DNA of 64,000 bases from a virus. Taxonomy: Duplodnaviria; Heunggongvirae; Uroviricota; Caudoviricetes. Positions 61 through 28,916 of this stretch are shown here, one piece after another. Position numbers and translations under genes: made by a program. The DNA lies in IMG/VR virus record IMGVR_UViG_3300046810_000041, positions 1 to 64,000 of that record. One strand, written 5' to 3'. The notes beneath the pieces were generated by a model. It ran no database searches, was not told where the DNA came from, and worked only from the letters and a program-made list of their open reading frames with translations. The stretch's first letter is position 1, and each line of letters starts with the position of its first letter.

Positions 61-127
61 CAGCGCCCACAAATTCCCTTCCAAGGGTCTTTGTGGGCGC
101 TGCAATCATCTTTTTTTTTTTTTTTTT
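61..127 (+). terminator. Hairpin with 13-bp stem (61-73/90-102) and conserved loop CCCTTCCAAGGG, then an 8-nt spacer and a T17 tract (111-127)
   Basis: Inverted repeat cagcgcccacaaa/tttgtgggcgctg read directly, followed by 17 consecutive T. The spacer between stem and T-run is atypical for a classic intrinsic terminator. Confidence 0.4.
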
Positions 128-159
128 GTTTTACTGTAGTACGGCAATTGTGCCAACTG

Positions 160-168
160 TGTTATAAT
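160..168 (+). promoter_or_regulatory. Host-type extended -10 promoter (TGTTATAAT) upstream of the early genes
   Basis: TGnTATAAT read directly at 160-168. There is no good -35 hexamer. Its position upstream of the first genes and the RNAP gene is consistent with host-RNAP early transcription. Confidence 0.3.
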
Positions 169-189
169 AGAATATACTGAAAGCGCAAA

Positions 190-321
190 ATGGAAAAGCA
201 CGCACTCCACTTCATCCTCCTGGCACTCGCTCTGGTGGTATGTACGAAACTCTCCCTTGATGCGGTCATCATTGGAGCAGCGGCTCTCTTCGTATCTCAA
301 GTAAAGGCAATCAAGCTGTGA
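190..321 (+). CDS. Small hydrophobic peptide (43 aa), hypothetical
   Basis: ATG at 190, hydrophobic translation MEKHALHFILLALALVV..., first ORF after the promoter. Too short to appear in the ORF track. Confidence 0.25.
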   Translation: MEKHALHFILLALALVVCTKLSLDAVIIGAAALFVSQVKAIKL

Positions 322-429
322 GCATCATTCTGAGTTTTCTACTGGCCTACTTGGGCTGGCGCTTTATCAATCTCGTACCACGAATCATCGTCCGTTACGA
401 GCAACTCTAAATAAATATATCTGGATACA

Positions 430-2706
430 ATGAAACAAAAATTAGTTGCATCTATCACTGAGCGTCTTCAAACTGAAATCAATCCTCGGAATCCGGTAAA
501 GTTCCTCAAAGAACTCGACGTTTCCGAAATGATCGACGCTGCCACGGTTGTCCTCTATACTTTCACACGTGGAGGACGATCGTCTGGAACTAAGGCAAGG
601 CAAATCCTGATGTCAGAAGTCGTGTGCGCAATTGGCCACGGCATCCGTAATCGAAATCGCCTCAAGAAGGACTCTGCGCTGGCTGCAAGGGCTGGTGCAT
701 TCATTCTCTGGTCCTTTGAGAATCTTGGTATCGTTCTGACCAAGATGGGTAAAGCCGACAACAAGCATGGCACCTTCATTGTTGAAGTGACTGCTGAAGA
801 AGCTCTGGTGCAGCTGTTCGAAGACATCGATATCAAGAAGATCGAGAAGCTTCCTTCGCTGACTCCATATGCACCCTGGACTTCGACCAAGCATGAAACT
901 GGTGCTAATATGGTCAAGACTGCTGATCGGGATGTTCTTGCAATTATCAAACCCGAGACGCATCCGATGGTGTATGAATGCTTGAACAAAGCACAACGTA
1001 CTGGCTGGAATGTCAACAAGGATATTTATGCGATCTTCACGTGGGCTCTCAGAAATAAAACGGATGCGTTTGCAGACATCTGGGAAATGCAGAATCCGGA
1101 AGCCAAGTCCTCAAAGGTACGGGAGGCAAATGCAGTGGGCGCAATTGCAAAGCGCTTCCTCGATGAGACGTTCTATCATCTCTACTATTATGACTTCCGT
1201 GGTCGCAAGTACCCGGCCACTGCTTACTTTCACGAACAAGGAACTGACGCGTCTAAGGGCTTGCTTCTCAGACAAGACAGCTTCCGTATCGGAGAGCACG
1301 GCTTCAACTGGCTCCTCATTTCCATTGCATCCAATTGGGCTGGAAGCGCTGGGCGCGAGGATGGTGCAAAGACCGACAAAATCCCGCTGAAAGATCGTGT
1401 ATGCTGGGCACTCGACAATAAGGAGATTCTGCTGTCGTATGCAGAGAACCCGAAGGTCAATCAGGGCTGGATGAAGGCGGATAAGCCTTGGCAGTTCCTG
1501 GCAGCATGCAATGAATGGATGAAGTTGGAGAAATGGCTTAACGATGGAGGCTGGAAAAGTGAAGATGGAAGGCTTGTACACATTCGAGACCAAGCTGATT
1601 ATGAGTCTCATCTTGAGTGCTTCATCGATGGCAGTAATAACGGCAGTCAGCATTTGTCTGCGCTCACCTTGGACGAAGTTACTGCTCCTCACGTTAATCT
1701 GGTTCCAAGTGATCTCCCTGGTGATCTGTATAAGTATGTTGCTGATCACGTATGGGAAAAGATTACTGATGAAGCTGAGGCAATGCTCCAAGCTCAGGTC
1801 CAGGAACTTGAGCGTGTAATCGACACTGTCACTGACCTGAAGACCCAGATTCAGCAGGCACCGATGAAGTCTGATCGTCGAGAAGAGCTGATCAAACAGA
1901 TTCAAGCCTACAAGCGAGAGAAGAAAGAAGTCATCGCGCAGGCTGCAGTAATCTTCTGGTATCGCGTCACTGATGCCAAACATCGTCGTAAGGTAGTGAA
2001 GCGTAATGTGATGACTCTTCCGTATGGTGGTACTGCGTATGGCCTGGGTCAGCAGCAGATCGATGATGCACGCAAGCACGGCATTGAGTCCCTGATGTCA
2101 ATGGAGCATGCTTGGGGCTCTTACATGGGCCGAGAGGTCTTCGAGGACTGCAAGAAGTCGCTTGAGAAGCCGATGCGTCTGTTGTCTGTGTTTGAGGCTG
2201 CAGGTGAGAAGGCTGGTGCTGAAGGTCGTTTCCTTAGCTGGACTGCACCAATCACCAACTTCCCGGTCGTTCAGCATTACGTGGAAGGCACTACCAAGAA
2301 GATTCACGTTCAATATGGCCCCGCTGTTGGAGAGCGGAGCAAGAGCACTGGATACTACGACAATGATCGACAACTGCACATCTGTGTCATCGAGCAATCG
2401 AAGCCTTCACCGAAGAAGCAATCTACGGGTGCCTCGCCAAATGCAATTCACAGTTTGGACGCTGCTCATCTTACTCTGTGTGTTAATCGTTGTGATTTCC
2501 CTGTCACTACTATTCACGATTCTTTCGGCTGCTTACTTGGTCATATGGCCGATCTGTTTCGTATTGTCCGCGAAACGTTCGTGGAGCTGTACAAATCTAA
2601 ACCGCTAGAAAAGCTGATGCAGGACATCGGTGGTGACATTAGCCAAGTTGAGATTGGTACTCTCGATCTGAACCTCATCCTGGAATCGGAGTATTGCTTT
2701 GCTTAA
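430..2706 (+). CDS. T7-like single-subunit DNA-dependent RNA polymerase (758 aa)
   Basis: Translation contains the DFRGR (T/DxxGR) motif, motif A DGSNNGSQH, motif B RKVVKRNVMTLPYGG and motif C IHDSFG. These are the hallmark catalytic motifs of T7 gene 1 RNAP. Confidence 0.9.
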   Translation: MKQKLVASITERLQTEINPRNPVKFLKELDVSEMIDAATVVLYTFTRGGRSSGTKARQILMSEVVCAIGHGIRNRNRLKKDSALAARAGAFILWSFENLGIVLTKMGKADNKHGTFIVEVTAEEALVQLFEDIDIKKIEKLPSLTPYAPWTSTKHETGANMVKTADRDVLAIIKPETHPMVYECLNKAQRTGWNVNKDIYAIFTWALRNKTDAFADIWEMQNPEAKSSKVREANAVGAIAKRFLDETFYHLYYYDFRGRKYPATAYFHEQGTDASKGLLLRQDSFRIGEHGFNWLLISIASNWAGSAGREDGAKTDKIPLKDRVCWALDNKEILLSYAENPKVNQGWMKADKPWQFLAACNEWMKLEKWLNDGGWKSEDGRLVHIRDQADYESHLECFIDGSNNGSQHLSALTLDEVTAPHVNLVPSDLPGDLYKYVADHVWEKITDEAEAMLQAQVQELERVIDTVTDLKTQIQQAPMKSDRREELIKQIQAYKREKKEVIAQAAVIFWYRVTDAKHRRKVVKRNVMTLPYGGTAYGLGQQQIDDARKHGIESLMSMEHAWGSYMGREVFEDCKKSLEKPMRLLSVFEAAGEKAGAEGRFLSWTAPITNFPVVQHYVEGTTKKIHVQYGPAVGERSKSTGYYDNDRQLHICVIEQSKPSPKKQSTGASPNAIHSLDAAHLTLCVNRCDFPVTTIHDSFGCLLGHMADLFRIVRETFVELYKSKPLEKLMQDIGGDISQVEIGTLDLNLILESEYCFA

Positions 2707-2914
2707 ACATGTTGGTGTTATCATTCGTGAAGCTTATACGCCTAAGGATTTCATAAGTCCACGGTTCCAGATTTATCTGTCGGGGCCTAAGGGTGAAATC
2801 TGCATACCACATCCGAAGGATTCATACGGGTATGGTTCAGCGGAAGCCAGAACGCGAGCTACAGAGATTGCTAATGTACTTGAATGTGGAGTGGAATTCG
2901 ATGGAAAAGGCTGA
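2699..2914 (+). CDS. Hypothetical protein (71 aa)
   Basis: ORF abutting the RNAP stop. It overlaps the next ORF in another frame, so the start and even its existence are uncertain. Confidence 0.3.
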   Translation: MLKHVGVIIREAYTPKDFISPRFQIYLSGPKGEICIPHPKDSYGYGSAEARTRATEIANVLECGVEFDGKG

Positions 2915-3272
2915 TTTCGTAAATAAGCTGCATATGGTTAAGTCGCTGATTGGGCTGATCCATATCGAACATGCACATGACTTGCCTCGTAAGAAGAGTG
3001 TGATCGGTGTATGCGATGAGCTCATGGGTAAGATCGACCATGATGGTATCGACTTTCTGGAGCCTCAGAAGCCTCAAATTGTGGTAAGGGAAGTGCAAGT
3101 GAAGGTTCCGGTAGAAGCACCTATACTGGCACCAAGGGCCGAGCCATGGCCTGCATATGTAAAATGGCACAAAGCTTCTTACTCAGGATTCCCACCTCCA
3201 CCGCTGGAGAAGATGAATGCTGGGCAGAAGGATCGTTATAACATTTGGATGGCAGGATACAACGCAACATGA
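2901..3272 (+). CDS. Hypothetical protein (alternative upstream start at 2793)
   Basis: ORF in the track. An internal ATG at 2901 overlaps the upstream stop (ATG/TGA overlap), which favours the shorter form. Confidence 0.35.
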   Translation: MEKADFVNKLHMVKSLIGLIHIEHAHDLPRKKSVIGVCDELMGKIDHDGIDFLEPQKPQIVVREVQVKVPVEAPILAPRAEPWPAYVKWHKASYSGFPPPPLEKMNAGQKDRYNIWMAGYNAT

Positions 3273-3688
3273 TTACTCTTGGAAACAACATGAATGAAAC
3301 CCACTCGATGTTTGGGCGGGAGGGTTTGACTTATCCACAATGGGCGAAAGTTGTTGGCTTCATTCGCAGGCAGCTGGATGAGATGGGTTGTGACGAGGAA
3401 TCTCCAGACTACTTGGAGAACTTCGGAGGTGTATTTAAGATCGTTGAAGACAATCAAGAAGACTTCACTGATATGATGATGCACATGTCTCCGGACATTC
3501 GTGTGGGCCGTAGTAAAGATGATCTCAGCCGTGGGTTTGACTTTGTACATACGCTGCAACAAGGCGAGCTGTACATCGTGGGTGTCTGCACTAATAATCA
3601 GGGCGGCAACCACTACATTATCACGGGTGAGCTTATCGAAAAGTACCCACTCATCTTGACCCACATGGAATTGCAGGAGGTGTTCTAA
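3245..3688 (+). CDS. Hypothetical protein (147 aa)
   Basis: ORF in the co-directional early gene string with protein-like composition. Confidence 0.45.
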   Translation: MDGRIQRNMITLGNNMNETHSMFGREGLTYPQWAKVVGFIRRQLDEMGCDEESPDYLENFGGVFKIVEDNQEDFTDMMMHMSPDIRVGRSKDDLSRGFDFVHTLQQGELYIVGVCTNNQGGNHYIITGELIEKYPLILTHMELQEVF

Positions 3689-3892
3689 ATGCTCGTCACT
3701 CGTACTTCTGGCTTCACTGGTAAGCGTAACACGATGGATCTCCCGGTAACCCAAGAGCAGCTCACAGAGTATGCTACGGGCAACCGCATGATTCAAGAGG
3801 TATTCCCTAACCTGAATGCAGATCAGCGTGAGTTCATCATGACTGGGTGCACTCCTGAAGAATGGAATGACCTCTTCAAGCAGGAAGAATAA
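3689..3892 (+). CDS. Hypothetical protein (67 aa)
   Basis: ATG immediately after the upstream TAA. It lies just before the first copy of the 21-mer. Confidence 0.4.
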   Translation: MLVTRTSGFTGKRNTMDLPVTQEQLTEYATGNRMIQEVFPNLNADQREFIMTGCTPEEWNDLFKQEE

Positions 3893-3921
3893 AGGACGGG
3901 TGAGTTGAATCCGGGCGGCCG

Positions 3922-3942
3922 CCAACCCGTTAAATTAACCCT
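3922..3942 (+). promoter_or_regulatory. Putative phage-RNAP promoter, exact 21-mer CCAACCCGTTAAATTAACCCT (copy 1)
   Basis: Identical 21-mer present at 5 sites in the window plus one variant. It is flanked by the inverted repeat gggcggcc/ggccgccc and lies upstream of the SSB gene. Confidence 0.6.
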
Positions 3943-4096
3943 AAGGCCGCCCTCCCCAGAGGGAATCCCAGGAGGGAACCCTCAGCTAAACCCTTGGTTA
4001 GTAGTTAGTTATAAACTATTAACTAAGGAGAATTGATTGTAAGAAGCAGTATTAGCATAATGCTAACAGACTAACATTATTTAAAGAGAATACACC

Positions 4097-4705
4097 ATGG
4101 CAATGATCAAAGGCGCAGAAATCCACTACATCAAATGTGACCCGAAGCGTCCGGATGGTACGTACAACAAGAAGAACCCGTCCTGGCAGGTTCAACTTCG
4201 TACTTCGGATACGGCTCAACGTGACAAGTGGAAAGAACAAGGACTGAACGTCAAACTGCTGACTCAGAAGGCAGAAGGCGCGGAAGAAGATGATCCGAAG
4301 ATTCCGGTTCTGACTGCGGATGGCAAGAAGATCTATCGGGTTAACCTGAAGAAGGGCTCGATTAAGAAAGACGGCTCCAAAGCAGAACCGGTGAAGGTGA
4401 TCAACGGTGCTCTCGAAGACATCGATCCGAACACCATCGCAAATGGCTCGATTGCCAATGTCCGTGTCTTCCAGTACGACTACAAGACCGAAGACGGCAA
4501 AGAAGGTATCGCTTCTATGCTGATGGCCATTCAGGTCACTAAGCATATTGTGTATGTGCCTAAAGCACGCGATGACGACTTCGATGTCGAAGAGACCGAG
4601 ACCATCGCAGCACAAGAAGAAATCGGTATGGACGATGATGACCAGCCGAAGGAAAAGAAGAAACCTGCAGCTACTCCGGCAGGTCGCAATGACGATGATT
4701 TCTAA
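4097..4705 (+). CDS. Single-stranded DNA-binding protein, T7 gp2.5-like
   Basis: 202 aa with a highly acidic C-terminal tail ending ...NDDDF (aromatic C-terminal residue as in T7 gp2.5). Position directly after the promoter in the replication module. Confidence 0.65.
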   Translation: MAMIKGAEIHYIKCDPKRPDGTYNKKNPSWQVQLRTSDTAQRDKWKEQGLNVKLLTQKAEGAEEDDPKIPVLTADGKKIYRVNLKKGSIKKDGSKAEPVKVINGALEDIDPNTIANGSIANVRVFQYDYKTEDGKEGIASMLMAIQVTKHIVYVPKARDDDFDVEETETIAAQEEIGMDDDDQPKEKKKPAATPAGRNDDDF

Positions 4706-4720
4706 TCATCAAGTAGTGTA

Positions 4721-4760
4721 GTGTAATACCGGGAGGGTCCTTGAGGCTCTCCCTAATTAT
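4721..4760 (+). repeat. Conserved intergenic element GTAATACCGGG-hairpin-CCCTAATTA (family copy 1)
   Basis: gtaataccgggagggtccttgaggctctccctaattat. Shares its 5' and 3' flanks and a hairpin with the elements at 9404 and 16941. Confidence 0.45.
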
Positions 4761-4777
4761 TGTTATGTGAGAATACA

Positions 4778-5482
4778 ATGAACAACTGGTTTAATGTGCT
4801 GAATCAAGCAGGTAATGTGACTCAGGCAGGTAAAGATTTCAACAAGCTTACGGTGGTCCCTGAAGGACATACTGTGCATATCTTTATTGATGGCAAGCGC
4901 AATACCATCCTCAAGAACCAAGACCAACTCGACGGCTGGCTCGAAGGTCAACAACGTAAATTTGCCTGGAAACCTGAAATGACTGAACAATTTGGACAAC
5001 ATACCATGACTGCAATCGCCCAACTGAATGGTATCGGTACTGACATCAACAATGCAATCAAAGGCCTGAGCAATGCGTTCGGCCCTGTGAGCAACTACAA
5101 TCCACCAAAAGAGCTGATTGGCACTCATGACCTGACGCGCGGTAATGTGGCCAAGATGTCTGACTTGACGGGTACTACCGAAGGGTTCGCAGATAACTAC
5201 GATGCTAAAGGTGGTGCAAGTCATTACAAGGACATTGTGCCGGGTATGCAGTACATGGAAATGATGCAGTACATGCTGGCAAAGTTCACTGGTGTTGAAG
5301 CACACCTGATGGGCCAGCTCTATAAGTATCTGATGCGTTGTGGTAACAAGGATGCCACTCTCCAGGAACTCACCAAGGTTCACTGGTATCTGGAATTCCT
5401 GATGGCATGGCACAAGAATGGTTGCAAGCCGTTCACTCACGAAGAGCAGCTGCGTCTGCTGGCCATGGAATCGGTTCTCTAA
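4778..5482 (+). CDS. Hypothetical protein (234 aa)
   Basis: ORF whose start carries the conserved context GAGAATACAATG. No motif recognised. Confidence 0.55.
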   Translation: MNNWFNVLNQAGNVTQAGKDFNKLTVVPEGHTVHIFIDGKRNTILKNQDQLDGWLEGQQRKFAWKPEMTEQFGQHTMTAIAQLNGIGTDINNAIKGLSNAFGPVSNYNPPKELIGTHDLTRGNVAKMSDLTGTTEGFADNYDAKGGASHYKDIVPGMQYMEMMQYMLAKFTGVEAHLMGQLYKYLMRCGNKDATLQELTKVHWYLEFLMAWHKNGCKPFTHEEQLRLLAMESVL

Positions 5483-5494
5483 GAAAGGCTAAGT

Positions 5495-7384: not shown

Positions 7385-7389
7385 ATAAA

Positions 7390-7545
7390 ATGGATCCGGT
7401 AGAGTACCTCGAAAGCTTAATAAGCAACGTAACTAAGATGCCAGTTCAAAAGAACGAACTGGAGCTTCTCAAACGATTCATTGAACTGGATCGAGTACGC
7501 AAAGAGGCTGCTCTACTGGCCTCAATTGCACAAACAGGACTTTAG
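7390..7545 (+). CDS. Small hypothetical protein (51 aa)
   Basis: Short ORF immediately after the DNAP stop. Not in the track because it is under 60 aa. Confidence 0.25.
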   Translation: MDPVEYLESLISNVTKMPVQKNELELLKRFIELDRVRKEAALLASIAQTGL

Positions 7546-7550
7546 CATAC

Positions 7551-7739
7551 ATGAACATAAACTTGCTTAGTAAGAAAGCAAAGCTCATCAAACGAACTTA
7601 CAAAGAAGGTTATATCACTGCCCGAAATGGCGATGACTATGGATTTTCGGATGCATGGGAACGAAGTGGTGCCAAAATGGACCATGACGCGTTGTTGAAG
7701 AAGATCGCTAAGCTTAGCCTGAAACACCGTATCAAATAA
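7551..7739 (+). CDS. Hypothetical basic protein (62 aa)
   Basis: ORF in the co-directional string. Confidence 0.4.
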   Translation: MNINLLSKKAKLIKRTYKEGYITARNGDDYGFSDAWERSGAKMDHDALLKKIAKLSLKHRIK

Positions 7740-7774
7740 GTAGTAAAGCGGGTTGTGTAGAATTGCCCTCATGC

Positions 7775-7795
7775 CCAACCCGTTAAATTAACCCT
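7775..7795 (+). promoter_or_regulatory. Putative phage-RNAP promoter, exact 21-mer (copy 2)
   Basis: Exact CCAACCCGTTAAATTAACCCT, flanked by the inverted repeat gccctca/tgagggc. It lies upstream of the lipoprotein gene. Confidence 0.6.
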
Positions 7796-7845
7796 CTTGA
7801 GGGCTTGCAGTACAACATCAATACTAAACTAACTGAAAGTATACA

Positions 7846-8637
7846 ATGAAGAAATTTGCTCTGATGATTATGGTTGCCCTGTCGATGGCAGCATGCACTC
7901 GCGTTCCGACTGGTGAAGTTGGTCTCCGTGTTAACTGGGACAAGACCATCGAAGCGAAAGAGCTGGTTGCTGGTTCGGTCAATCAAACCATCATCGGTGA
8001 CGTCGAGAAATTCCCGATCAAGGAAATCTCGGCAGAAGTGAATGACCTGTCTCCTCTGGCGGCTGACAATAGCACGATGAAGGATTTCGACATCGCAGTT
8101 GTCTACAACCTGAACCCTTCTTCGGTATCCGAACTGTACACCAAGAAGAGTCATTCGTTCCATGCCACCGCAAGGGACACTGGCGATACGTTGCTGATGT
8201 ACTCGTATATCCAGCTGACTGCCCGCAATGCAGTCTTCAAGGAAGCACGAAAGTACGCAGCACTGGAAATGAATGACAAGCGTACTCAGATCGAATCCGA
8301 TATCCTGGCAACCATGAAAGCAACTCTGGCTGCAGAAGGTCTCGGTAACGATATCACCATCTCACAGATCCAGGTCAAGAGCATTGCGCCTTCGGATGCT
8401 GTGAAACAATCGGCTGATGCACTGGTTCGTTCCCAGAATGAACAGAAGCAAAAGCAGATCGAAGTGGGTACTGCGAAGCTGGAATCCGAGCGTATCGCTG
8501 CATTGAACGCCAATGCGGGTGCTATCGGTTACATGCAAGCACAAGCCCAGATGAAAATTGCCGAAGGTATCGCCAATGGCAAGGTTCAAACCGTTGTGGT
8601 GCCTTATGACTTCAAAGGCATGATCAGCGTGAAGTGA
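7846..8637 (+). CDS. SPFH/band-7-like lipoprotein
   Basis: Signal peptide with lipobox MIMVALSMAAC. The segment MKDFDIAVVYNLNP resembles the SPFH core, and a C-terminal coiled coil is typical of HflK/C-like proteins. Confidence 0.5.
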   Translation: MKKFALMIMVALSMAACTRVPTGEVGLRVNWDKTIEAKELVAGSVNQTIIGDVEKFPIKEISAEVNDLSPLAADNSTMKDFDIAVVYNLNPSSVSELYTKKSHSFHATARDTGDTLLMYSYIQLTARNAVFKEARKYAALEMNDKRTQIESDILATMKATLAAEGLGNDITISQIQVKSIAPSDAVKQSADALVRSQNEQKQKQIEVGTAKLESERIAALNANAGAIGYMQAQAQMKIAEGIANGKVQTVVVPYDFKGMISVK

Positions 8638-9403: not shown

Positions 9404-9445
9404 GTAATACCAGGGTGGTCTCTAACAAGGGATCACCCTTATTAA
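9404..9445 (+). repeat. Conserved intergenic element GTAATACCAGG-hairpin (AGGGTGGTC...GATCACCCT)-TATTAAT (family copy 2)
   Basis: A 28-nt core agggtggtctctaacaagggatcaccct identical to 16949-16976. It forms a 9-bp stem with a 10-nt loop. Confidence 0.5.
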
Positions 9446-16940: not shown

Positions 16941-16981
16941 TGTAACACAGGGTGGTCTCTAACAAGGGATCACCCTTTTTA
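16941..16981 (+). terminator. Conserved element family copy 3: hairpin agggtggtc...gatcaccct followed by TTTTT
   Basis: The same 28-nt core as 9412-9439, here followed by a T5 run. Lies directly after the nrdA stop. Confidence 0.55.
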
Positions 16982-20326: not shown

Positions 20327-20620
20327 ATGAACAGTTTGGAAATGCTGTTGGCCCAAGGCGCTGAAGAAGGTAGCGAGTTTGCACAAGCATGTGTGAAGAT
20401 TCTTCGCTTCGGTCCTGATTCTACCTTTCAAGGTGAATCTAATCTCATGCAACTTCGCAAGGAGTTCATTGATGTGTTGGGCGTAGCAAGTCTGTTGCAA
20501 GATGAAGGCCTTCTGCCGAGGATGAATGACCCTGAAGTAGCATTCGGCGTTCAAGCTAAGCGCGAGAAGGTGAAACGTTACATGGATGTGTCCGAGCAGT
20601 TGGGCACCCTGCAGCGTTAA
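20327..20620 (+). CDS. Hypothetical protein (97 aa)
   Basis: ORF with the AGGAATACAATG start context. Confidence 0.45.
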   Translation: MNSLEMLLAQGAEEGSEFAQACVKILRFGPDSTFQGESNLMQLRKEFIDVLGVASLLQDEGLLPRMNDPEVAFGVQAKREKVKRYMDVSEQLGTLQR

Positions 20621-20657
20621 TAGTAGTACATTCAAATATACTGATAGAAAGCATACA

Positions 20658-21497: not shown

Positions 21498-21676
21498 TCA
21501 AGCAAGAGTCAAAGGTCGGGAGTTGTTTGACGATGTGGAGTTGCTTAATCTCTCCAATAAGTTTGCAACACCCGACGTTGAAGCACCATCAGCACACCGT
21601 ATTAAGATGACTAAACGGGATTTGGTGGCATACACACATGCAGTAATTGTAGAAACTTTAAATAGGATAAACCGAA

Positions 21677-22015
21677 ATGAGCAACCAAGCACAAGTACTC
21701 AAGATTCAAGCAGCAGACCGCACCAAGACCTTTCATTCCCGCGTGGAAGCGAAACGTCGCAGCAACGAGGACATCATTCAGGAGTTGATGCAACACTCCA
21801 AGTTTGGTGGACTGGCTCAAGCGTTCGTGATGGCAGGTCTGCGGGTGTATGCAGAATCGATCGCCTCGACGGAGCGTCCGGAAGCACAGCCGAATGCAGT
21901 AATCGATCCGGCTTTGTGGCACGACATCGCGACCGACACTTTCGAGCGTTTGGAAATGATGTATAAGCAGAACAATGAAGTAGTTGTATCGAGCATCATC
22001 GATCTGGCGGCCTAA
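21677..22015 (+). CDS. Hypothetical protein (112 aa)
   Basis: ORF with the ATAAACCGAAATG start context. Confidence 0.5.
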   Translation: MSNQAQVLKIQAADRTKTFHSRVEAKRRSNEDIIQELMQHSKFGGLAQAFVMAGLRVYAESIASTERPEAQPNAVIDPALWHDIATDTFERLEMMYKQNNEVVVSSIIDLAA

Positions 22016-22083
22016 GTCAGACGATTGCAGTAAGTGGCCTAATAAGCCCACATTCTAATATTACACCAAGAGGAATATTTATC

Positions 22084-22395
22084 ATGACGAAGAAAATCAA
22101 AGACTTAGCAATTCTGGACTTGGCAAATCTGCCGAACGCTCTCAAGACTGTCTACGTTGATCATAACAACGTGATTGTCAAGGTGAACCGCAGCAAAGAT
22201 CTGTTGAAGTCCGCTGCTACTTGTTTGATGCATATGCAAACGAACCAGTATGGCGCAAAATACGCAGAGATTCTTGATGCGGATACTGAGAAGCGTTATG
22301 CGATGATCAAACGTCCGATTCGCGGTGAACTTAAGGTCGAGTACGATTGGGACCCTGAGCAAACCGTGTATGGCGTCAGTGTGTTGTTGAAGTAG
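22084..22395 (+). CDS. Hypothetical protein (103 aa)
   Basis: ORF in the co-directional string. Confidence 0.45.
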   Translation: MTKKIKDLAILDLANLPNALKTVYVDHNNVIVKVNRSKDLLKSAATCLMHMQTNQYGAKYAEILDADTEKRYAMIKRPIRGELKVEYDWDPEQTVYGVSVLLK

Positions 22396-22460
22396 TAGTA
22401 GAAGTAGCCCGGAGCCTCAAAACTCCGGGTTTCACCATGTAATCTTAACTCCACGTTATA

Positions 22461-23297
22461 ATGAAAAATAAACCGCTCGTGATTTACCATGCAAGTTGCC
22501 TCGATGGTTTTGGTGCTGCATTCGCATTCTGGAAGGTGTTCGGCAAGAACGCTGATTATCATCCGGGTGTGTATGGAGACCCTTGCCCCGATGTAACTGA
22601 TCGTGATGTTTATATGTTAGACTTCGGCTACAAGCGTAATGTGGTTGAAGGCATGGTTAAGTTTGCCAAGAGTGTAACGCTGATCGATCACCATGTGACA
22701 ACGATTAATGCTCTGGCAGACGTTGATGGTATCGACCGCTATACCGATATTCATCAATCGGGTGCTGTTTTGGCCTGGAAGTACGCACAAGATGTTCTGT
22801 TCCTGGATGCTGAGATTCCGCAACTGATCAAGCATATTCAGGATCGTGACCTCTGGAATTTCGAATTACCTTTTACGAAGGAAGTTATCGCTGGTTTGTC
22901 CAGTTATGATTTCAACTTCATGGATTGGGATTCGATCATCTACGAAGTGGGTAATGAATTCCTGATCCAGGAAGGCAACACTATTCTCCGCTACCACAAG
23001 AAGAATCTGTTGCAAGTACTCGAAGAATGCACTCGCGAAATGTTCATCGTGGGTGAGCCTGTACCCTGCGCCTCTGTGCCATATTTCATGGCCTCAGATG
23101 CAGGTGAAATTCTGAATAAAGGCAAACCGTTCTCTGCAACGTATTATGACACCGACAAGCATCGTGTGTTCAGTCTTCGTTCTGAGAAAGGTAAGGGTTG
23201 GGATGTGTCTGCAGTTGCTGCTCAATACGGCGGCGGTGGTCACAAGCATGCAGCAGGGTTCATGGTAACCCGTCAGCATCACCTGGCTAAAGTCTAA
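22461..23297 (+). CDS. DHH-family phosphoesterase (NrnA/RecJ-like core)
   Basis: The four DHH-family motifs are present: YHASCLDGFGAA, LDFGY, LIDHH and YGGGGHKHAAG (GGGH). Confidence 0.7.
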   Translation: MKNKPLVIYHASCLDGFGAAFAFWKVFGKNADYHPGVYGDPCPDVTDRDVYMLDFGYKRNVVEGMVKFAKSVTLIDHHVTTINALADVDGIDRYTDIHQSGAVLAWKYAQDVLFLDAEIPQLIKHIQDRDLWNFELPFTKEVIAGLSSYDFNFMDWDSIIYEVGNEFLIQEGNTILRYHKKNLLQVLEECTREMFIVGEPVPCASVPYFMASDAGEILNKGKPFSATYYDTDKHRVFSLRSEKGKGWDVSAVAAQYGGGGHKHAAGFMVTRQHHLAKV

Positions 23298-23310
23298 GTA
23301 GTTTCTTGGT

Positions 23311-23360
23311 GCGCTCCTTAATCGGGGCGCTTGGTGGTGTCTTCGGATGCCACCCTTTTT
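23311..23360 (+). terminator. Two tandem hairpins (gcgctcc-TTAATC-ggggcgc, then ggtggtgtc-UUCG-gatgccacc) followed by TTTTT
   Basis: Inverted repeats read directly. The second has a UUCG tetraloop and a T5 run. Lies directly after the DHH gene. Confidence 0.5.
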
Positions 23361-23387
23361 ATTCGTCAATTGTTAGGATACATTATG

Positions 23388-23606
23388 AGCACTACCAAAG
23401 AAGTCAAGTCGAAATCCCTGGGTGAACTGCAAGAAGCCTCCATCAAGGCAACTCTCCTGTTCCGCAAGGCTCAAGAAGACTTTGTCAAAGCGCAGGAAAA
23501 CCTCAAGGTCCGCCAGAACCAGCATGTTACGGCTATTCTTCAATTGAATGATGAATTCGCCAAGGTTCGCCGCGAGTGCGAGGTTGCCCCGCTGGGCAGT
23601 CTGTGA
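23388..23606 (+). CDS. Hypothetical protein (72 aa)
   Basis: ORF trimmed to the ATG that follows the terminator. Confidence 0.4.
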   Translation, partial: STTKEVKSKSLGELQEASIKATLLFRKAQEDFVKAQENLKVRQNQHVTAILQLNDEFAKVRRECEVAPLGSL

Positions 23607-23732
23607 GCCTGTGATGGGTTTCACCGACCTGTTCTTCCCGCGTGTCACCACGGACCAACCTGGTAGGCAGGTGACGGTGCGTGTGCTCAAGTCCCGGTCT
23701 GAGTTCAGCAGTCCGTACGGTCTGGTTCTCCG

Positions 23733-23753
23733 CCAACCCGTTAAATTAACCCT
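23733..23753 (+). promoter_or_regulatory. Putative phage-RNAP promoter, exact 21-mer (copy 3, tandem pair)
   Basis: Exact CCAACCCGTTAAATTAACCCT followed by GAAAGGGAACGA. It is the first of two copies 64 bp apart. Confidence 0.6.
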
Positions 23754-23796
23754 GAAAGGGAACGACGAGGAAGGTCAGCTGCGGTCTACCGCCAAT

Positions 23797-23817
23797 CCAA
23801 CCCGTTAAATTAACCCT
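23797..23817 (+). promoter_or_regulatory. Putative phage-RNAP promoter, exact 21-mer (copy 4, tandem pair)
   Basis: Exact 21-mer with the same downstream GAAAGGGAACGA. It is the second unit of a roughly 64-bp tandem duplication upstream of the gene at 24004. Confidence 0.6.
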
Positions 23818-24003
23818 GAAAGGGAACGAGGAAGTTCGGCTGGCTTGCTGTCTCCAGGACGCTATGTCTTTTGGACTTCCTCACCTGAACACGCTTTAAC
23901 CTATACTCCGTAAAACTGCGGGTTTATAGGCATCTTATATGAAGAAGGCTCATAAGAGTTGACTTCGAATTCCATTACTTTTAAATTGAAACGAGAATAC
24001 ATC

Positions 24004-24441
24004 ATGACGAACGCAACCGAAAACCAGATCATCGACAACGCAGAAGCAACCGCACCGACCGTCGCCAAGAAGAAAGGCGCTGTCGCCCTGCTGAAGAAGC
24101 GCGCACTGTTCGAAGCTCCGGATGGCACCATCTTCGAAACCCAGAAGGAAGCCACCGAGTACCTGCGCCGCCACCTGAAAGTGGATGCTGTCAATGCTGT
24201 CGCTGCACTGTTCACGGGCGTCGATGCTGAAGGCAACGAGCAGACTCTGGGCCAATTCCTGCTGTCGAACGAAGATGCAATCCGCAAGGCATACGATGCT
24301 GCCAAAGTGGAACGCGCTCCGGTCACGGAAGAAACCAAGGCCAAGATGCGTGCTGCACGCGCCAAGCTGAAAGGTGAAGTCGCTCCGGCAGACCAAACCC
24401 CGGCTGATGCAGAAACCCAAGGCGATGCTCAAGCTGAGTAA
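24004..24441 (+). CDS. Hypothetical acidic/Ala-Lys-rich protein (145 aa)
   Basis: ORF trimmed to the ATG with the GAGAATACATCATG context. Confidence 0.5.
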   Translation: MTNATENQIIDNAEATAPTVAKKKGAVALLKKRALFEAPDGTIFETQKEATEYLRRHLKVDAVNAVAALFTGVDAEGNEQTLGQFLLSNEDAIRKAYDAAKVERAPVTEETKAKMRAARAKLKGEVAPADQTPADAETQGDAQAE

Positions 24442-24820
24442 TCGCGATCTAAGGAAAGTAGTTCGACTATAGAGATACTATAGCGGATCGAAATCCTTGG
24501 ACTACCCTTTGTTGAGCTTGCACTCAACTCCCGGCCCTATATAGACCTGAAATCTGTATAGGGCCACCTTTCTAATCTAATCTTAGACGATAAATAGTTA
24601 TGATCTGGCCGTAGTGTATTGAGTACATTTGAATAGACGATAATTGGATGAGTGACGCCTTTAGGGCATTGATAAGATTAGAGTGCCAGAATGGGTCTGG
24701 TATTCGCTTTGTTAAATATAATTAATATGATTTGGCGTTAGATTAGGGGGCATCGACCGAGTGTGGAGCTAACGGGATGCCCTCATTAACTAACGTAGTA
24801 GGATTTACCTAACAGAAACC
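24442..24820 (+). repeat. Repeat-rich non-coding region: palindromes CTATAG...CTATAG and ggccctata...tatagggcc, direct repeat TAGACGATAA x2, several further hairpins
   Basis: No protein-like ORF is present. Multiple inverted and direct repeats are read directly. Confidence 0.4.
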
Positions 24821-24892
24821 GCCACAGGTAAATCTACAGTAGCTCTTTATTGAGTTGCCGTAGATTTACCTGTGGCCTTTTTTTTTTTTTTT
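24821..24892 (+). terminator. Strong intrinsic terminator: perfect 17-bp stem (gccacaggtaaatctac/gtagatttacctgtggc) followed by T15
   Basis: Perfect inverted repeat with a T-tract immediately after it. It closes the replication module. Confidence 0.7.
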
Positions 24893-24915
24893 CGTTCCCT
24901 TTGTAAATAGCTGAG

Positions 24916-25182
24916 ATGAATACACCGCAACCTATCCCTGCAATCGCTTCGGAAGCAGAAACCTACGATAGTGAATTTCTGCTCAATCGTGCAACTATGA
25001 TGAAACGCCGTAAAGGTTTCATTAGTGGTACCAAGATTAAGAATCCAGATGGCTCTTATACAGTCACCTGGGTTCCAGCATCACCTGCAATTAAGGTTGG
25101 TGGTAGTAAGAAGAGGATTCGTCCTCGGATCAGTAGTAATGCAGTTCGTAATACCTTCTCACCTGGTGCAAGCCAGCTGTAA
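24916..25182 (+). CDS. Hypothetical protein (88 aa), first gene of the AT-rich island
   Basis: ORF. Confidence 0.4.
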   Translation: MNTPQPIPAIASEAETYDSEFLLNRATMMKRRKGFISGTKIKNPDGSYTVTWVPASPAIKVGGSKKRIRPRISSNAVRNTFSPGASQL

Positions 25183-25187
25183 CACCT

Positions 25188-25209
25188 AGCGTCCCTTAAT
25201 TGGGGCGCT
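25188..25209 (+). promoter_or_regulatory. Hairpin agcgtccc-TTAATT-ggggcgct carrying the exact palindrome CCCTTAATTGGG
   Basis: The same 12-mer occurs in the loop of the 28832-28901 hairpin, with variants at 23316 and 78-89. Confidence 0.4.
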
Positions 25210-25226
25210 TAATTATTGAGGATGTA

Positions 25227-25424
25227 ATGCTTCCTATTAACGAAGTAAAGAAGTTTGAGTATAAGGGTGAGTTGTTTGACACTTATGCTGAAGCTGAAAG
25301 AGCAAAATACGTGGATGAAATTGAAACGTATCTTGGCCGGGAATGCAATCTTGAATCCTGGCAACTAGAAGGCGTGTTAGAGGCACTCTTAAAACAGTAC
25401 GATATCACGCTTAAGACTAAATAA
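25227..25424 (+). CDS. Hypothetical protein (65 aa)
   Basis: ORF trimmed to the ATG after the hairpin. Confidence 0.35.
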   Translation: MLPINEVKKFEYKGELFDTYAEAERAKYVDEIETYLGRECNLESWQLEGVLEALLKQYDITLKTK

Positions 25425-25439
25425 TCTTTAGGATAAATC

Positions 25440-25946
25440 ATGGAACACAACCAGCAACCGAAGCCTACGAACCACACCTCGCCAGTAACTTACAATCTCC
25501 GCCGTGAAGAACGTCACATGGTTGATATGATTGCTCAGGCGCAAGGGACTCCAGGTGGGCCATCGGGCAGTAAATCCCAAGTAGTAAGGGATGCTATTCG
25601 CTTCTATGCCATCGCGCATGACCAGCAAGCCCAAGGTCATCGTATGGTGTTCATCGGTGCAGACGGTAAGACAACGGAGATCAGTGAACTCTGGCACAAG
25701 CCAATCAGTAGTATGGCTGCTCCTGGATTCCCTCCCGCTCCAATCCCTGCTGTGGCGAATCAAGATGTACCCGCTGTACCTGCTGTGGTAGCACCTGCAA
25801 CTGCAGTAACGAGGGCTCCTGATGATGTTCAAGCATTGCTCAAGGCGATGTTGACGATCAACAAGGATCCTGGGTTTGAAACCATGGTTAACTCCATGGG
25901 TGTGGAAGTTCTCATCAACATCGGTAAGCAACTGCTGAATAAGTAA
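25440..25946 (+). CDS. Hypothetical protein, possible ribbon-helix-helix DNA-binding regulator
   Basis: KSQVVRDAIRFYAIAH resembles RHH/Arc-MetJ-type strand-helix segments. Weak evidence. Confidence 0.4.
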   Translation: MEHNQQPKPTNHTSPVTYNLRREERHMVDMIAQAQGTPGGPSGSKSQVVRDAIRFYAIAHDQQAQGHRMVFIGADGKTTEISELWHKPISSMAAPGFPPAPIPAVANQDVPAVPAVVAPATAVTRAPDDVQALLKAMLTINKDPGFETMVNSMGVEVLINIGKQLLNK

Positions 25947-25957
25947 TAGGATATAAA

Positions 25958-26752
25958 ATGGAACACAAGGAATATCGCCTCGTCTGCAACAATCGTCGTT
26001 ATATCATCAAGCTGGATCCTACCAAAGTTCTGGAAACGACTTCGGTAACGACTGATAGCTCAAGTAAGATGTCTCTGTCTTACTTCGGTCTGAACGGCAG
26101 TGTCACCAGCTCGTTCTCGACTAACGACGAGGAGAGCAAGAAAAGCGTCACGGCATTCTTGTGGCGTGAGTTGGCTCGTATGCATCATCGCGAGTTGGGT
26201 GAACGTCAGCCGGAACCTCCGCGTGTCGTTGGTATCCGCACCTTAACGAATACACGTCCTCGCCCGAATCCGAATGGTGGCCGTGCTTACGCACAAGCTA
26301 TTCTGGACAATGGTGGTTTGGAAGGTATGGCCAAGCTTGCTCACCAGGCTTTTGAGTTGCGCATCAAACAGCTGGAGCAAGAATTGGCTGAGAAGGATGA
26401 GCGTCTCAACAACGCAATGGCTGCAATTGATTCCCGCGATGTAACTATCCGGGCTCAACGTGCAGAGAACATGCGTCTGCAGCATGAGTACCGCGCTCAG
26501 GCCTTCAATGAAGTGAAGAAGGAATTTGAAGAGCGTGAGAAGAAGCTGCATGCATCGGTTGATACGTGCCACCAGAAGGTTCGTATGTTTGATGAAGCTT
26601 GCAAGCGTGCTATCCTGGGCTCCCGTGGTTTGGTTATCATCGATACCAGTGAACAGGCCGATGAAGAAACCAAGATCGGTAATGCCGGGACGGTCGCTGA
26701 AGTGCAAGATCGTCTGCTGCAAGCCTGCAATCGTCGTATGGGAGAATTCTGA
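25958..26752 (+). CDS. Hypothetical coiled-coil protein (264 aa)
   Basis: ORF with a long heptad-like region LRIKQLEQELAEKDERLNNAMAA... Confidence 0.5.
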   Translation: MEHKEYRLVCNNRRYIIKLDPTKVLETTSVTTDSSSKMSLSYFGLNGSVTSSFSTNDEESKKSVTAFLWRELARMHHRELGERQPEPPRVVGIRTLTNTRPRPNPNGGRAYAQAILDNGGLEGMAKLAHQAFELRIKQLEQELAEKDERLNNAMAAIDSRDVTIRAQRAENMRLQHEYRAQAFNEVKKEFEEREKKLHASVDTCHQKVRMFDEACKRAILGSRGLVIIDTSEQADEETKIGNAGTVAEVQDRLLQACNRRMGEF

Positions 26753-27147
26753 TGAGCAACTCTATCAAACCCTCTACGATTCTGATGCGTGCTTGTAACG
26801 CAATCGGTGTTGGTGAAGAGCATGGCATTCGTGTATTCTGCTGTAACGCGATCACGAAGGTTGTGTTTGACTATGTGCATGCGGGCAAGAAAGTCAAACC
26901 GCATTGGGATGAGCAGACGCATGAAGAGCTGGCGTACCTGCGTAATCTGTCCGAGTATAAAGCAGCTATGAAGTATCTGCTGATGTTCGCTCCGGATTGG
27001 GTTGTGGCGGACATGCTGACTTCCAACCCTCTGCATGAGAAGATGGAAGACGCTGTGTGGTTCCGTTATAGCACTCCTGGTTGTTTCGATGAGCGTATCA
27101 TTGCTCTGTCGATGGCTGCTTATATGGCCAAATCTGAAGGTAACTAA
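26752..27147 (+). CDS. Hypothetical protein (131 aa)
   Basis: ORF whose ATG overlaps the upstream stop. Confidence 0.45.
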   Translation: MSNSIKPSTILMRACNAIGVGEEHGIRVFCCNAITKVVFDYVHAGKKVKPHWDEQTHEELAYLRNLSEYKAAMKYLLMFAPDWVVADMLTSNPLHEKMEDAVWFRYSTPGCFDERIIALSMAAYMAKSEGN

Positions 27148-27265
27148 CCTGTAGTACTGTAGTCGAGGGCGCTTTCATAGGCCCTCAGTTGTTTAATTGT
27201 TTATTGTTTAACTGTTCGTATATTTCCGTTATTAGGATAAGCTAACATTATAAAAGGAAGTCATA

Positions 27266-27772
27266 ATGGCTCAATGGTCCATGCTACTAGATTCATCTCG
27301 TTCGCCAATGTATGGAGCAATAGTTGCACGCTCTGTACCTGAAGCAAAGCGAAAGTGTCTGATTCGGGGAGTGCCTGAGAACCTGATTCTAGAGTTTTAC
27401 CTGGGTATAAATCAGCCAACTGGTTTAGACTTTGCTAAATGGCTCGTCAAAGTTGATCAAGACTTTAATGGCGGGTTCATCCCAAAACATTTCACCTTCT
27501 ATGTACATTCGCAGAATGAAGAGGGGCGTGAAGCGATTAACACTTTGTTGAACGACTACCTGGAGGAACGTCGTAATAAATGGATTCAAGAGTTAGGCTT
27601 TGAAGATCGTAGAGACCGAAGGTCGAAAGAATATGTCCTCGAAGAGCGCCGCAAAAATCCTCCGAAGTTAGGTAGAAGGATTAAGCCAAGCATCTTATGG
27701 GGTAATCTTGATGGTTCAGACTTTGCTTTACACACTCGAAACAAACTGATTGAAGACAAAAGGAAACACTAA
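27266..27772 (+). CDS. Hypothetical protein (168 aa), AT-rich
   Basis: ORF. Confidence 0.45.
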   Translation: MAQWSMLLDSSRSPMYGAIVARSVPEAKRKCLIRGVPENLILEFYLGINQPTGLDFAKWLVKVDQDFNGGFIPKHFTFYVHSQNEEGREAINTLLNDYLEERRNKWIQELGFEDRRDRRSKEYVLEERRKNPPKLGRRIKPSILWGNLDGSDFALHTRNKLIEDKRKH

Positions 27773-27774
27773 GA

Positions 27775-27966
27775 ATGAAAAAGTTGTTTGTTACCACTTA
27801 TAACAAAACTACGGGTCACCTGAGCAGTAAAGTTGTTGAATTTCATACGAAGGCTGGTGCAGACGCGTTTATTAAATTGGCAGAGGAAAGGACTGTCAGT
27901 GATAACTATCCAATTGGTTATCAAGTAGTACCGATGTATGACGAAGAGCAGGGTTATTCATTTTAG
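27775..27966 (+). CDS. Hypothetical protein (63 aa)
   Basis: ORF. Confidence 0.35.
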   Translation: MKKLFVTTYNKTTGHLSSKVVEFHTKAGADAFIKLAEERTVSDNYPIGYQVVPMYDEEQGYSF

Positions 27967-27983
27967 GTATTAGGAGGTGTATC

Positions 27984-28355
27984 ATGAGTATCTTCGGTAG
28001 GGCAAAGGACAAGGTCGTAGAGAAATCATCTGATCTTGCCCGTCAAGCAGTAAGAGCAGTGAAGGGTCGTCCGAATGTTCAAACGAATCTCTCGGATGAA
28101 ACGGAGAAGGGTGGTAGAAAGAAGGTAGCACCGCAGTATCGGTCTGGGGCGAAAACTTCTCAGAATCAACAGAGGTCTAGCTCCAAGAACGCTTCTCCGA
28201 AAGGCTATAGTGAAAGGCTTCCGAAAGACTTGCCTCCTCCGGTATCACCTAATGATCCTCCCACAAAGGAACTAAGGGTGATACCAAGGCAGTTCTCGAA
28301 AGTGATGGATAGAATCACTCCTAAAGCCATACGGGATAGAAAGGAACATGATTAG
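27984..28355 (+). CDS. Hypothetical basic, low-complexity protein (123 aa)
   Basis: ORF with S/K/P/Q-rich composition. Confidence 0.35.
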   Translation: MSIFGRAKDKVVEKSSDLARQAVRAVKGRPNVQTNLSDETEKGGRKKVAPQYRSGAKTSQNQQRSSSKNASPKGYSERLPKDLPPPVSPNDPPTKELRVIPRQFSKVMDRITPKAIRDRKEHD

Positions 28356-28489
28356 TTTTTCGTTGCTAATTGTGGTAAGTAAATGCTTGAGAATAAAAAT
28401 CTGAAAGAGACAGAAGGTAGAGCACTTCCTTAATAATTCTACCAAGAGTTATTAATCAGTGCTCTACCTTCATCAACCCGAGACTTAAA

Positions 28490-28819
28490 ATGAAAAATAA
28501 ATTGTATCGAGTAGTAACTGGTAAGCCGTTTGTGGATAAATTCTACCATGCATTCTTCAAGGGCACTTTGGTGAAAACTAAAGATGAACCTGTGTATGGT
28601 ATGGTGTATGTTGTTGGAGAACATCCGCCTCATAGTGGTACAGCCTTAGGGCAGACTGTGAGGGAGAAAGATCTTGTGCTCGTATGTGAGTTCAACGATT
28701 CAAGAAACAAACGAGAAGGTAGTTTTAAGAAGCGTCGTGAGAAGAAAGCCCGAAAGGGCATCGTGGTAGTAGATATTGAAGCAGTACCAAATGCTGTACT
28801 CATGAAGTTAGCAGCATAA
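28490..28819 (+). CDS. Hypothetical protein (109 aa)
   Basis: ORF. Confidence 0.45.
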   Translation: MKNKLYRVVTGKPFVDKFYHAFFKGTLVKTKDEPVYGMVYVVGEHPPHSGTALGQTVREKDLVLVCEFNDSRNKREGSFKKRREKKARKGIVVVDIEAVPNAVLMKLAA

Positions 28820-28831
28820 GATTTCTCCTTT

Positions 28832-28916
28832 GGCGGCCCTAGGCTCCCTCTCTAAACATTCCCTTAATTGGGTTTGTTTAGAGAGGGAGCCTAGGGCCGC
28901 CTATTTTTTTTTTTTT
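28832..28916 (+). terminator. Very strong terminator: perfect 27-bp stem (28832-58/28875-901), loop containing CCCTTAATTGGG, then T13
   Basis: Perfect 27-bp inverted repeat ggcggccctaggctccctctctaaaca/tgtttagagagggagcctagggccgcc, followed by TAT and then T13. Confidence 0.7.

Follow-up and report, generated by a model that had tools for sequence, protein, structure and literature searches.

The virion RNA polymerase of phage N4 uses promoters with 5–7-bp stems and 3-nt loops, on the template strand of supercoiled DNA upstream of early genes, and in phage T7 the ribosome-binding site of gene 11 lies within about 20 nt of the terminator Tphi. Tphi itself lies between genes 10 and 11. Its 13-bp stem includes five G·U pairs and carries a 6-nt loop, and a poly-U tract follows; its efficiency in vivo is 62%, and the genes downstream depend on its leakiness, which belongs to the programme of the phage (PMC9157156). 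In engineered T7 terminators (UUCG-capped, with G·U pairs repaired to G:C, or of tandem-hairpin design), a stronger stem, a stable cap and tandem hairpins raise termination to 91–98% (PMC9157156). Typical bacterial terminators have 5–12-bp stems and 7–9-nt U tracts next to the stem (PMC3993855). Here we analyse a 64,000-nt stretch (the window; positions 1 to 64,000) of the Caudoviricetes record IMGVR_UViG_3300046810_000041, which encodes a T7-like RNA polymerase (430–2706, + strand) and carries three giant hairpins, each followed by a long T run. With a probability of roughly three in four, we read these elements as oversized, factor-independent terminators of the Tphi type that act in the sense RNA and serve primarily to stop the highly processive, single-subunit T7-like polymerase of the phage; the host polymerase is probably stopped at them too.

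All three giant elements are intergenic and lie on the coding strand, every gene of the window being encoded on the + strand. Terminator 1 (site 1, 60–127), folded as RNA like the other window hairpins, forms a hairpin (60–103, +) with an outer stem of 14 bp (60–73 with 90–103), an inner CCCU/AGGG helix of 4 bp and a UCCA loop (−35.5 kcal/mol, z = −9.4), and the 7-nt spacer AATCATC then leads to T17 at 111–127. It precedes a 43-aa open reading frame (ORF; 190–321) and the polymerase gene, and the upstream context provided by a second assembly, L151 (L numbers are our labels for related contigs), places it after a cluster of small genes. In terminator 2 (site 5, 24821–24892), the hairpin (24821–24876, +) has stems of 17 and 7 bp, one mismatch and a UUUAUU loop (−41.3 kcal/mol, z = −10.7); one C follows the stem, T15 occupies 24878–24892, and the ORF at 24916 begins 23 nt past the run. 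Terminator 3 (site 4, 28832–28916) is the most stable (hairpin 28832–28901, +; −68.7 kcal/mol, z = −14), with a perfect 27-bp stem, a UU/UU internal loop, a CCC:GGG helix and a UUAAUU loop, followed by TA and T13 at 28904–28916; it closes the block 24916–28819. No other non-overlapping inverted repeats in the 64 kb are as long as these hairpins (stems 13–32 bp, loops 4–6 nt; ranked I1, I2 and I4, I3 being an overlapping palindrome), and T17, T15 and T13 are the sole runs of at least eight T or A in the window. A preliminary description of this DNA had reported five sites, two of them small hairpins discussed below. Its T17 and T13 runs and perfect 27-bp stem are correct, as is its fifth long hairpin with T15 and a different loop at 24821–24892, but the stem it gave as 13 bp at site 1 measures 14 bp. 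Its view that the elements exceed what an intrinsic terminator needs also holds, stem and U run being 2–4 times the bacterial lengths described as typical (PMC3993855).

The sense RNA hairpins (−35 to −69 kcal/mol, z of −9 to −14) have the stability that characterizes both class I (Tphi-type) and intrinsic terminators. The U run adjoins the stem at sites 4 (2 nt) and 5 (1 nt) and does so in part at site 1 (7 nt), and the elements are co-directional with the genes, intergenic and at the ends of units, site 5 closing a promoter–gene unit. No A run lies upstream of the hairpin at any of the sites, so none of them is bidirectional; simple bidirectional terminators indifferent to loop mutation were one of the outcomes that the preliminary description had named as defeating its proposals.

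Comparison with T7/T3 Tphi reveals a common architecture on a different scale. Like Tphi, the elements pair a sense RNA hairpin, rich in G·U in the relatives and capped by a 6-nt loop, with a U run, occupy a position after a strongly promoted gene, and have the ribosome-binding site of the next gene close behind and dependent on read-through. Unlike Tphi, they have stems of 20–32 bp in the window and 15–39 bp in relatives (versus 13 bp), U runs of 13–17 in the window and 9–33 in relatives (versus 6–8), often a pyrimidine-rich spacer ending in UA, three copies per genome at module borders, and UUAAUY, UUCG or UUAU loops in place of the T7 CUAAAC (our own parse of T7nat, PMC9157156). With bacterial intrinsic terminators capped by C(UUCG)G or GNRA they share a G:C-clamped hairpin and a U tract, and UUCG is the commonest cap in this clade too, whereas both parts are 2–4 times longer here than is typical of bacteria (PMC3993855) and the run is often displaced by 5–26 nt. 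Site 2 and the counterpart of site 5 in relative L018 are natural tandem hairpins resembling engineered T7 terminators; those designs, however, depend on an internal class II pause sequence (TATCTGTT) that the window elements lack. None of the window elements contains ATCTGTT, the motif of the hairpin-independent class II signals of T7, which among 67 elements was found only in the 5′ arm of the hairpin of phage DSS3_PM1 (TATCTGTT). In Rfam searches of the window, the gathering threshold returned tRNAs only, and E-values up to 1 added only sub-threshold matches of generic microRNA-precursor models to two giant hairpins. The giant hairpins belong to no known RNA family.

A megablast search of 8 kb of the window against 50,697 phage records gave zero matches. 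As the window thus has no nucleotide-level relative among deposited phages, relatives were sought through proteins, the closest phages by this measure being EBPR siphovirus 1 and the cultured deoxyuridine-DNA (dU-DNA) roseophages DSS3_PM1 and DSS3_VP1 (Naomviridae). TerL searches of IMG/VR and metagenomes, made without use of any loop motif, yielded about 90 loci at 49–69% identity (the terminase set), and a search by the phage RNA polymerase yielded 72 related loci (the polymerase set), so that more than 150 related loci were surveyed across two positions. The element recurs at both of these syntenic positions, one ahead of the terminase module and the other ahead of the RNA polymerase gene, on one general plan: a hairpin of 15–39 bp leads into a spacer that is rich in pyrimidines and mostly ends in TA, and T9–T33 follows. 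The terminase set contains 31 distinct giant hairpins with T9–T28, all on the coding strand and mostly 1–4 kb upstream of terminase (median stem 24 bp, median run 12, spacer 0–13 nt); T runs of at least nine number 49 on its coding strand versus 4 on the opposite strand. In the polymerase set, the hairpin–spacer–T-run arrangement of site 1 is found at 45 of 72 loci, usually 150–260 nt before the polymerase gene. There the spacer is mostly 6–26 nt (one element has none) and usually C/U-rich, and T8–T30 follows; in about half of these elements the next ORF, sometimes the polymerase itself, starts 11–33 nt past the run.

Individual relatives show how closely run and gene can be joined, and how variable the run can be. 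At the L018 counterpart of site 5, a tandem hairpin is followed by T17, a Shine-Dalgarno sequence one base on and an ATG 10 nt on. The EBPR siphovirus 1 element carries T19-N-T13. In DSS3_PM1, a 31-bp stem with T22 (L014, 21540–21628) has a repeated promoter-like sequence of that phage's own within 12 nt, and DSS3_VP1 has the same hairpin with T7 (L152, 2150–2236); either the length of the run changes very readily or the assemblies contain errors. A YYTTTA tract preceding the run is conserved, with TA immediately before the run in 25 of 34 cases.

Stem sequences are unrelated between phages, and still 97% of contacts pair. Across the terminase set we counted 543 Watson-Crick, 145 G·U, 4 A·C and 15 other contacts, with 5′ arms rich in C and 3′ arms rich in G. 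Each G·U pair in the sense strand is a C·A mismatch on the complementary strand, a bias indicating that the sense strand, most simply as transcript RNA, is the one under selection. Pairing confined to the sense strand in relatives argues against both a cruciform and a template-strand promoter hairpin; sites 1 and 4 of the window, being fully Watson-Crick, are by themselves unable to tell the strands apart. Among several functions put forward in the preliminary description was an insulator-type terminator for the phage RNA polymerase, and strand, position, sense RNA pairing, synteny and the parallel with T7 Tphi all favour that proposal.

The terminators are interleaved with a likely candidate promoter of the T7-like polymerase. 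A 21-nt repeat, CCAACCCGTTAAATTAACCCT, occurs on the + strand at 3922–3942, 7775–7795, 23733–23753, 23797–23817, 29172–29192 and 31285–31305, as five exact copies and one with two mismatches, where none is expected by chance. Five of the six copies lie between called genes (the copy at 3922 is inside a doubtful 43-aa ORF), and the last 10 nt of the repeat equal the first 10 nt of the T3 promoter. The tandem copies at 23733 and 23797, 1 kb upstream of site 5, precede a single gene (24004–24441), an untranslated tail of about 380 nt and terminator 2. The copy at 29172 lies 255 nt past terminator 3, where the module of tRNA, terminase and structural genes begins, and the variant copy lies between tRNA-Arg and tRNA-Trp. 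In relatives L004, L091, L084, L111, L148, L081 and L135, the core CCCGTTAAATTAACCC (at most two mismatches) follows the run by 30–280 nt. The terminator-then-promoter order is thereby kept in the window and at least seven relatives, and the promoter core persists even where TerL identity has dropped to about 65%.

On the Tphi-type reading, the polymerase would transcribe the inverted repeat, and the G:C-clamped apex would nucleate a very stable hairpin. It would next enter a stretch of 13–17 rU:dA pairs, a weak and slippage-prone hybrid, and the complex would dissociate; a slippage-prone hybrid is reported to promote termination by T7 polymerase (Molodtsov et al. 2014), which would explain why runs exceed the hybrid length of roughly 8 bp. 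Site 1 would mark the border between the polymerase gene and the small-gene cluster and late transcript that end ahead of it; site 5 would close the unit under the two tandem phage promoters, and site 4 the middle block ahead of the terminase/structural promoter. The next gene starts just past the run at site 5, in L018 and in about half of the polymerase-upstream elements, which means that transcription must pass the element. Termination is probably incomplete, and read-through would supply genes starting 10–30 nt past the run, in the way that leakage past Tphi supplies T7 genes 11 and 12. Which polymerase is stopped, how efficiently, and that read-through occurs are points that we infer.

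Several observations weigh against this interpretation. At site 1 and most polymerase-upstream elements, the stem is 7–26 nt from the run, a gap that is non-canonical for either type of polymerase. A plain terminator explains neither the conserved TA before the run nor a 16-nt apex conserved between the window, L004 and L018. Strong terminators placed 10–30 nt before promoterless genes demand leakiness or regulated read-through, which is assumed here, and the promoter role of the 21-mer is itself something that we infer. Additionally, the published description of the Naomviridae names no terminators and mentions a promoter only in passing.

The preliminary description had seen one loop motif at four sites and a conserved 12-bp palindrome that suggested a protein-binding site or a structured DNA or RNA signal. 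The motif is present at sites 2 (UUAAUC), 3 and 4 and missing from site 1, which has the UCCA loop and has only TTCCCTT...GGGT in common with site 4. The palindrome does not stand: the reverse complement of CCCTTAATTGGG is CCCAATTAAGGG, and dyad symmetry is limited to the outer three bases, CCC with GGG, which form a 3-bp C:G clamp closing a UUAAUU hexaloop. The exact 12-mer is present twice in the window, and nine matches with at most two mismatches compare with 3.4 expected, a count of nine being reached in 2 of 100 shuffles.

The two small hairpin sites that share this cap are of an ordinary kind. Site 2 (23311–23363) follows the gene 22461–23297 and consists of hairpin A (23311–23330, +; 7 bp with one U·G pair, UUAAUC loop) and hairpin B (23333–23354, +; 9 bp, UUCG loop, then CUUUUUAUU). 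In tandem these reach −27.3 kcal/mol (z = −4.4), and the site looks like an ordinary two-hairpin terminator. Site 3 (25188–25209, +; 8 bp with one U·G pair, UUAAUU loop, then UAAUUAUU) sits between the ORF 24916–25182 and an ORF starting at 25227, and is likely a weak attenuator or mRNA-stabilizing hairpin. The small hairpins of the two sites are 22-mers, 86% identical, and appear to derive from a single short hairpin whose cap both retain, acting as ordinary weak terminators or stabilizers. They recall the nut/boxB hairpins of phage lambda (small, with an invariant loop, early in the transcript, recognized by a phage antiterminator) in their size and shared loop, yet they lie after stop codons. 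In L018, a homologous ORF is followed at the position of site 3 by an 8-bp hairpin whose stem differs and whose loop is CUAACC. No relatives turned up in a scan with the DHH-type gene adjoining site 2.

A pattern scan of IMG/VR for CCTTAATYGG followed by T10 within 10–40 nt gave 35 matches, in about 33 of which the motif is the apical hexaloop, on stems of 5–31 bp (mostly at least 11 bp), and at least 19 of the 35 adjoin homologues of window genes. A control scan with the reverse-complement loop (CCAATTARGG plus T10) gave 20 matches, 13 of them at hairpin tips with shorter stems. The control finds terminators too, so the pattern itself enriches for terminators and the 35 UUAAUY matches alone are no proof of loop specificity; for this reason the motif-independent sets described above were built. 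The UUAAUY loop is known in the relatives L004, L008, L018 and L148 and in about 30 IMG/VR matches, which satisfies the expectation of the preliminary description that it occur in homologous phages, but most relatives have replaced it. Among the 31 terminase-upstream loops, UUCG occurs 11 times, UUAU five times and UUAAUY three times, with UUAACU, UUCAUU and others also encountered, and C:G pairs close nearly all of these loops; polymerase-upstream elements carry UUCG almost exclusively. A census of long coding-strand hairpins in about 970 kb of clade DNA likewise found UUCG to be the commonest cap and UUAAUU the commonest hexaloop (4 of 87 hairpins with stems of at least 10 bp). From this distribution, the CCC-UUAAUY-GGG apex appears to be a lineage-favoured cap that is replaceable and that evolution can exchange for C(UUCG)G or C(UUAU)G. 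A proposed link between the loop and an AT-rich promoter core was dropped, a shared 6-mer being its sole basis.

One alternative is regulated termination, in which the UUAAUY apex of the giant elements and of the hairpins at sites 2 and 3 would be the RNA site of a phage-encoded antiterminator, termination enhancer or processing protein that times read-through. An identical 16-nt apex, TTCCCTTAATYGGGTT, sits atop different stems in the window, L004 and L018, and the same cap is carried by three or four hairpins of the window; together with the conserved TA, these features argue for some constraint on the apex, and they identify no factor. Genes downstream without room for a promoter, and the lead of UUAAUU (TTAATT in the DNA) among clade hexaloops, would also suit regulation. 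The replacement of the loop by UUCG (11 of 31), UUAU or others in most relatives, its near absence upstream of the polymerase gene and the different loop of the site 3 counterpart in L018 all run counter to a fixed binding site. The excess of caps within genomes is also weak, extra UUAAUY hairpins being only about two times more numerous in genomes with a capped main terminator than in others, and a PHROG scan of ten genes between and around sites 2–4 gave no functional call, hence no candidate RNA-binding regulator. We consider this alternative unlikely.

A polymerase-selective switch in two parts seems unlikely too. It would take YYUUUA plus U(9–33) as a clade-specific slippage or termination signal that works even 7–26 nt from the hairpin, with an early polymerase (host or capsid-borne) passing the element and expressing the polymerase gene, the phage polymerase being blocked, and a phage factor bound to the UUAAUY apex setting read-through into genes with ribosome-binding sites next to the U run.

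That the elements are simply large intrinsic terminators for the multisubunit host polymerase, with the phage polymerase uninvolved, we regard as quite improbable. The stem lies 1–2 nt from the U run at sites 4 and 5, which is canonical geometry, and against E. coli polymerase, hairpins engineered for T7 polymerase are likewise effective, at about 99% (PMC9157156), so the two roles overlap. Site 5, however, closes the unit that starts with the two phage-type promoter copies, the element goes with a clade whose defining trait is a T7-like polymerase, its size is well above what host terminators need, and many copies have a gap of 7–26 nt, a poor geometry for a bacterial polymerase.

An RNA processing or stability role is more doubtful still. 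On this view, RNase III would cut the long double-stranded stems, or these would protect 3′ ends, and the U run would serve as a nuclease or Hfq/S1 site or as a translational enhancer of the next gene. Pairing in the sense-strand RNA, the perfect 27-bp duplex of site 4 and the abutment of the T run on the next Shine-Dalgarno sequence at many loci are all compatible with such a role. Against it, termination better suits the tight coupling of hairpin and run, a frequency as low as three per 64 kb and the position at module borders before promoters, and the RNase III sites of T7 are not known to be followed by U runs; a processing role would in any case be compatible with termination.

Several contigs, like the window, begin at such an element. 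In six independent contigs (the window, L001/L156, L072, L150, L155 and L196), a T run ends at nt 126–127, and in others a T run ends at 28–105. A run end at nt 126–127 is the signature of a de Bruijn graph break at a homopolymer with k = 127, and in L151, a second assembly of this phage, the sequence runs on without a break from tail-fibre, lysis and small genes through site 1. The presence of the elements at contig ends is an assembly effect, and the idea that they are genome ends is rejected on the k-mer signature together with the continuity of L151. The given length of T17 at site 1 may be unreliable owing to the same break. More generally, these homopolymers break metagenome assemblies at k = 127, and contig ends in this clade should not be taken for genome ends.

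The window also encodes a 1639-aa fusion (37700–42619) of an N-terminal Mu F-like (MuF) head-morphogenesis domain with C-terminal matches to the T7-type RNA_pol family, probably a capsid-packaged polymerase. As in N4, then, a phage whose virion carries an RNA polymerase domain also has hairpin-forming inverted repeats. The preliminary description had raised a hairpin promoter for a virion polymerase and a nick or packaging site. Unlike N4 promoters, the elements are larger (stems of 13–32 bp in the window and up to 39 bp in relatives, loops of 4–6 nt), pair only as sense strand, are backed by T runs and stand at the ends of gene blocks. Site 1 precedes the polymerase gene, but sites 4 and 5 come after gene blocks. 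A DNA-level signal, be it a cruciform or hairpin promoter for the fusion or a nick, origin or packaging site, gains something from the fusion and from the several contigs, the window included, that begin at such an element, and is nevertheless the least probable reading, given that a G·U to A·C ratio of 145:4 leaves the template strand unable to form the hairpin in most relatives, that stem and loop sizes are unlike those of N4 promoters, that all elements lie at 3′ ends of gene blocks, and that the k = 127 break in six independent contigs and the assembly crossing site 1 account for the coincident ends.

The elements described here belong to a large, mostly uncultivated group of siphophages, including the dU-DNA Naomviridae, whose members carry a T7-like polymerase plus a capsid protein–polymerase fusion and whose transcription was previously unstudied. 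The 21-nt candidate promoter, three putative module-border terminators and the terminator-then-promoter junction before the terminase module provide a first transcription map of one member, with features conserved over more than 100 metagenomic relatives. T7-type polymerases are hard to stop, and large natural terminators (G·U-rich stems of 15–39 bp, defined caps, 9–33 U) with matched promoters could become orthogonal expression parts. The natural set could also show how far termination by single-subunit polymerases depends on the size of the hairpin, its cap, the spacer and the length of the U run.

Beyond the terminators, the window encodes a family A DNA polymerase, a primase-helicase and a ribonucleotide reductase, and its structural module includes terminase, portal and a 2916-aa tape measure protein. 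The MuF–polymerase fusion has counterparts in EBPR siphovirus 1 (55%) and in the DSS3 phages (28%). The PDB contains no sequence match to it that would show an N4-like or T7-like kinship. A tRNA cluster at 31193–33348 comprises nine genes by ARAGORN, to which Rfam adds 32137–32208, with small ORFs interspersed. In a subset of relatives (L002/L213, L204, L207, L210 and L214–L219), the match to the polymerase spans 2.9–3.3 kb, not 2.25 kb, and contains stop codons, which suggests that the gene has been interrupted by an intron, an intein or a homing endonuclease.

Two further repeats accompany candidate promoter regions. A 21-nt sequence, CCWCGGACCAACCTGSTAGGC, occurs at 23648–23668 and 29024–29044, 148–149 nt upstream of the candidate promoter copies at 23797 and 29172, and the pairing suggests a duplicated upstream regulatory module. 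In L151, where window position 1 corresponds to 9572, three repeats of about 60 nt (TTTACyC-GAGGGTATTATGAGTGCCCTC-tAGGTAGCGCTTTGCTAC, with two small hairpins) lie at about 7450–8560, 1–2 kb upstream of the start of the window and each about 25 nt before a small gene. They seem better candidates than the giant hairpins for early promoters of a host or capsid-borne polymerase.

Non-coding DNA near the terminators holds additional structure. The stretches 24442–24820 (about 380 nt, from gene to terminator 2) and 28917–29356 (about 440 nt, from terminator 3 to the first late gene) contain further hairpins, such as 24533–24565, and match no Rfam family; they may be structured untranslated regions or small RNAs. 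The hexamer GTAGTA occurs 40 times in the window versus about 20 expected, a count that no shuffle reached, at 42, 136, 7740, 20623, 22392, 24795, 27151, 46717 and other positions, often after stop codons and before intergenic hairpins. An exact 28-nt hairpin repeat, AGGGTGGTCTCT-AACA-AGGGATCACCCT, lies at 9412–9439 and 16949–16976, both times intergenic and followed by a T/A-rich tract, and appears to be a duplicated ordinary terminator or attenuator.

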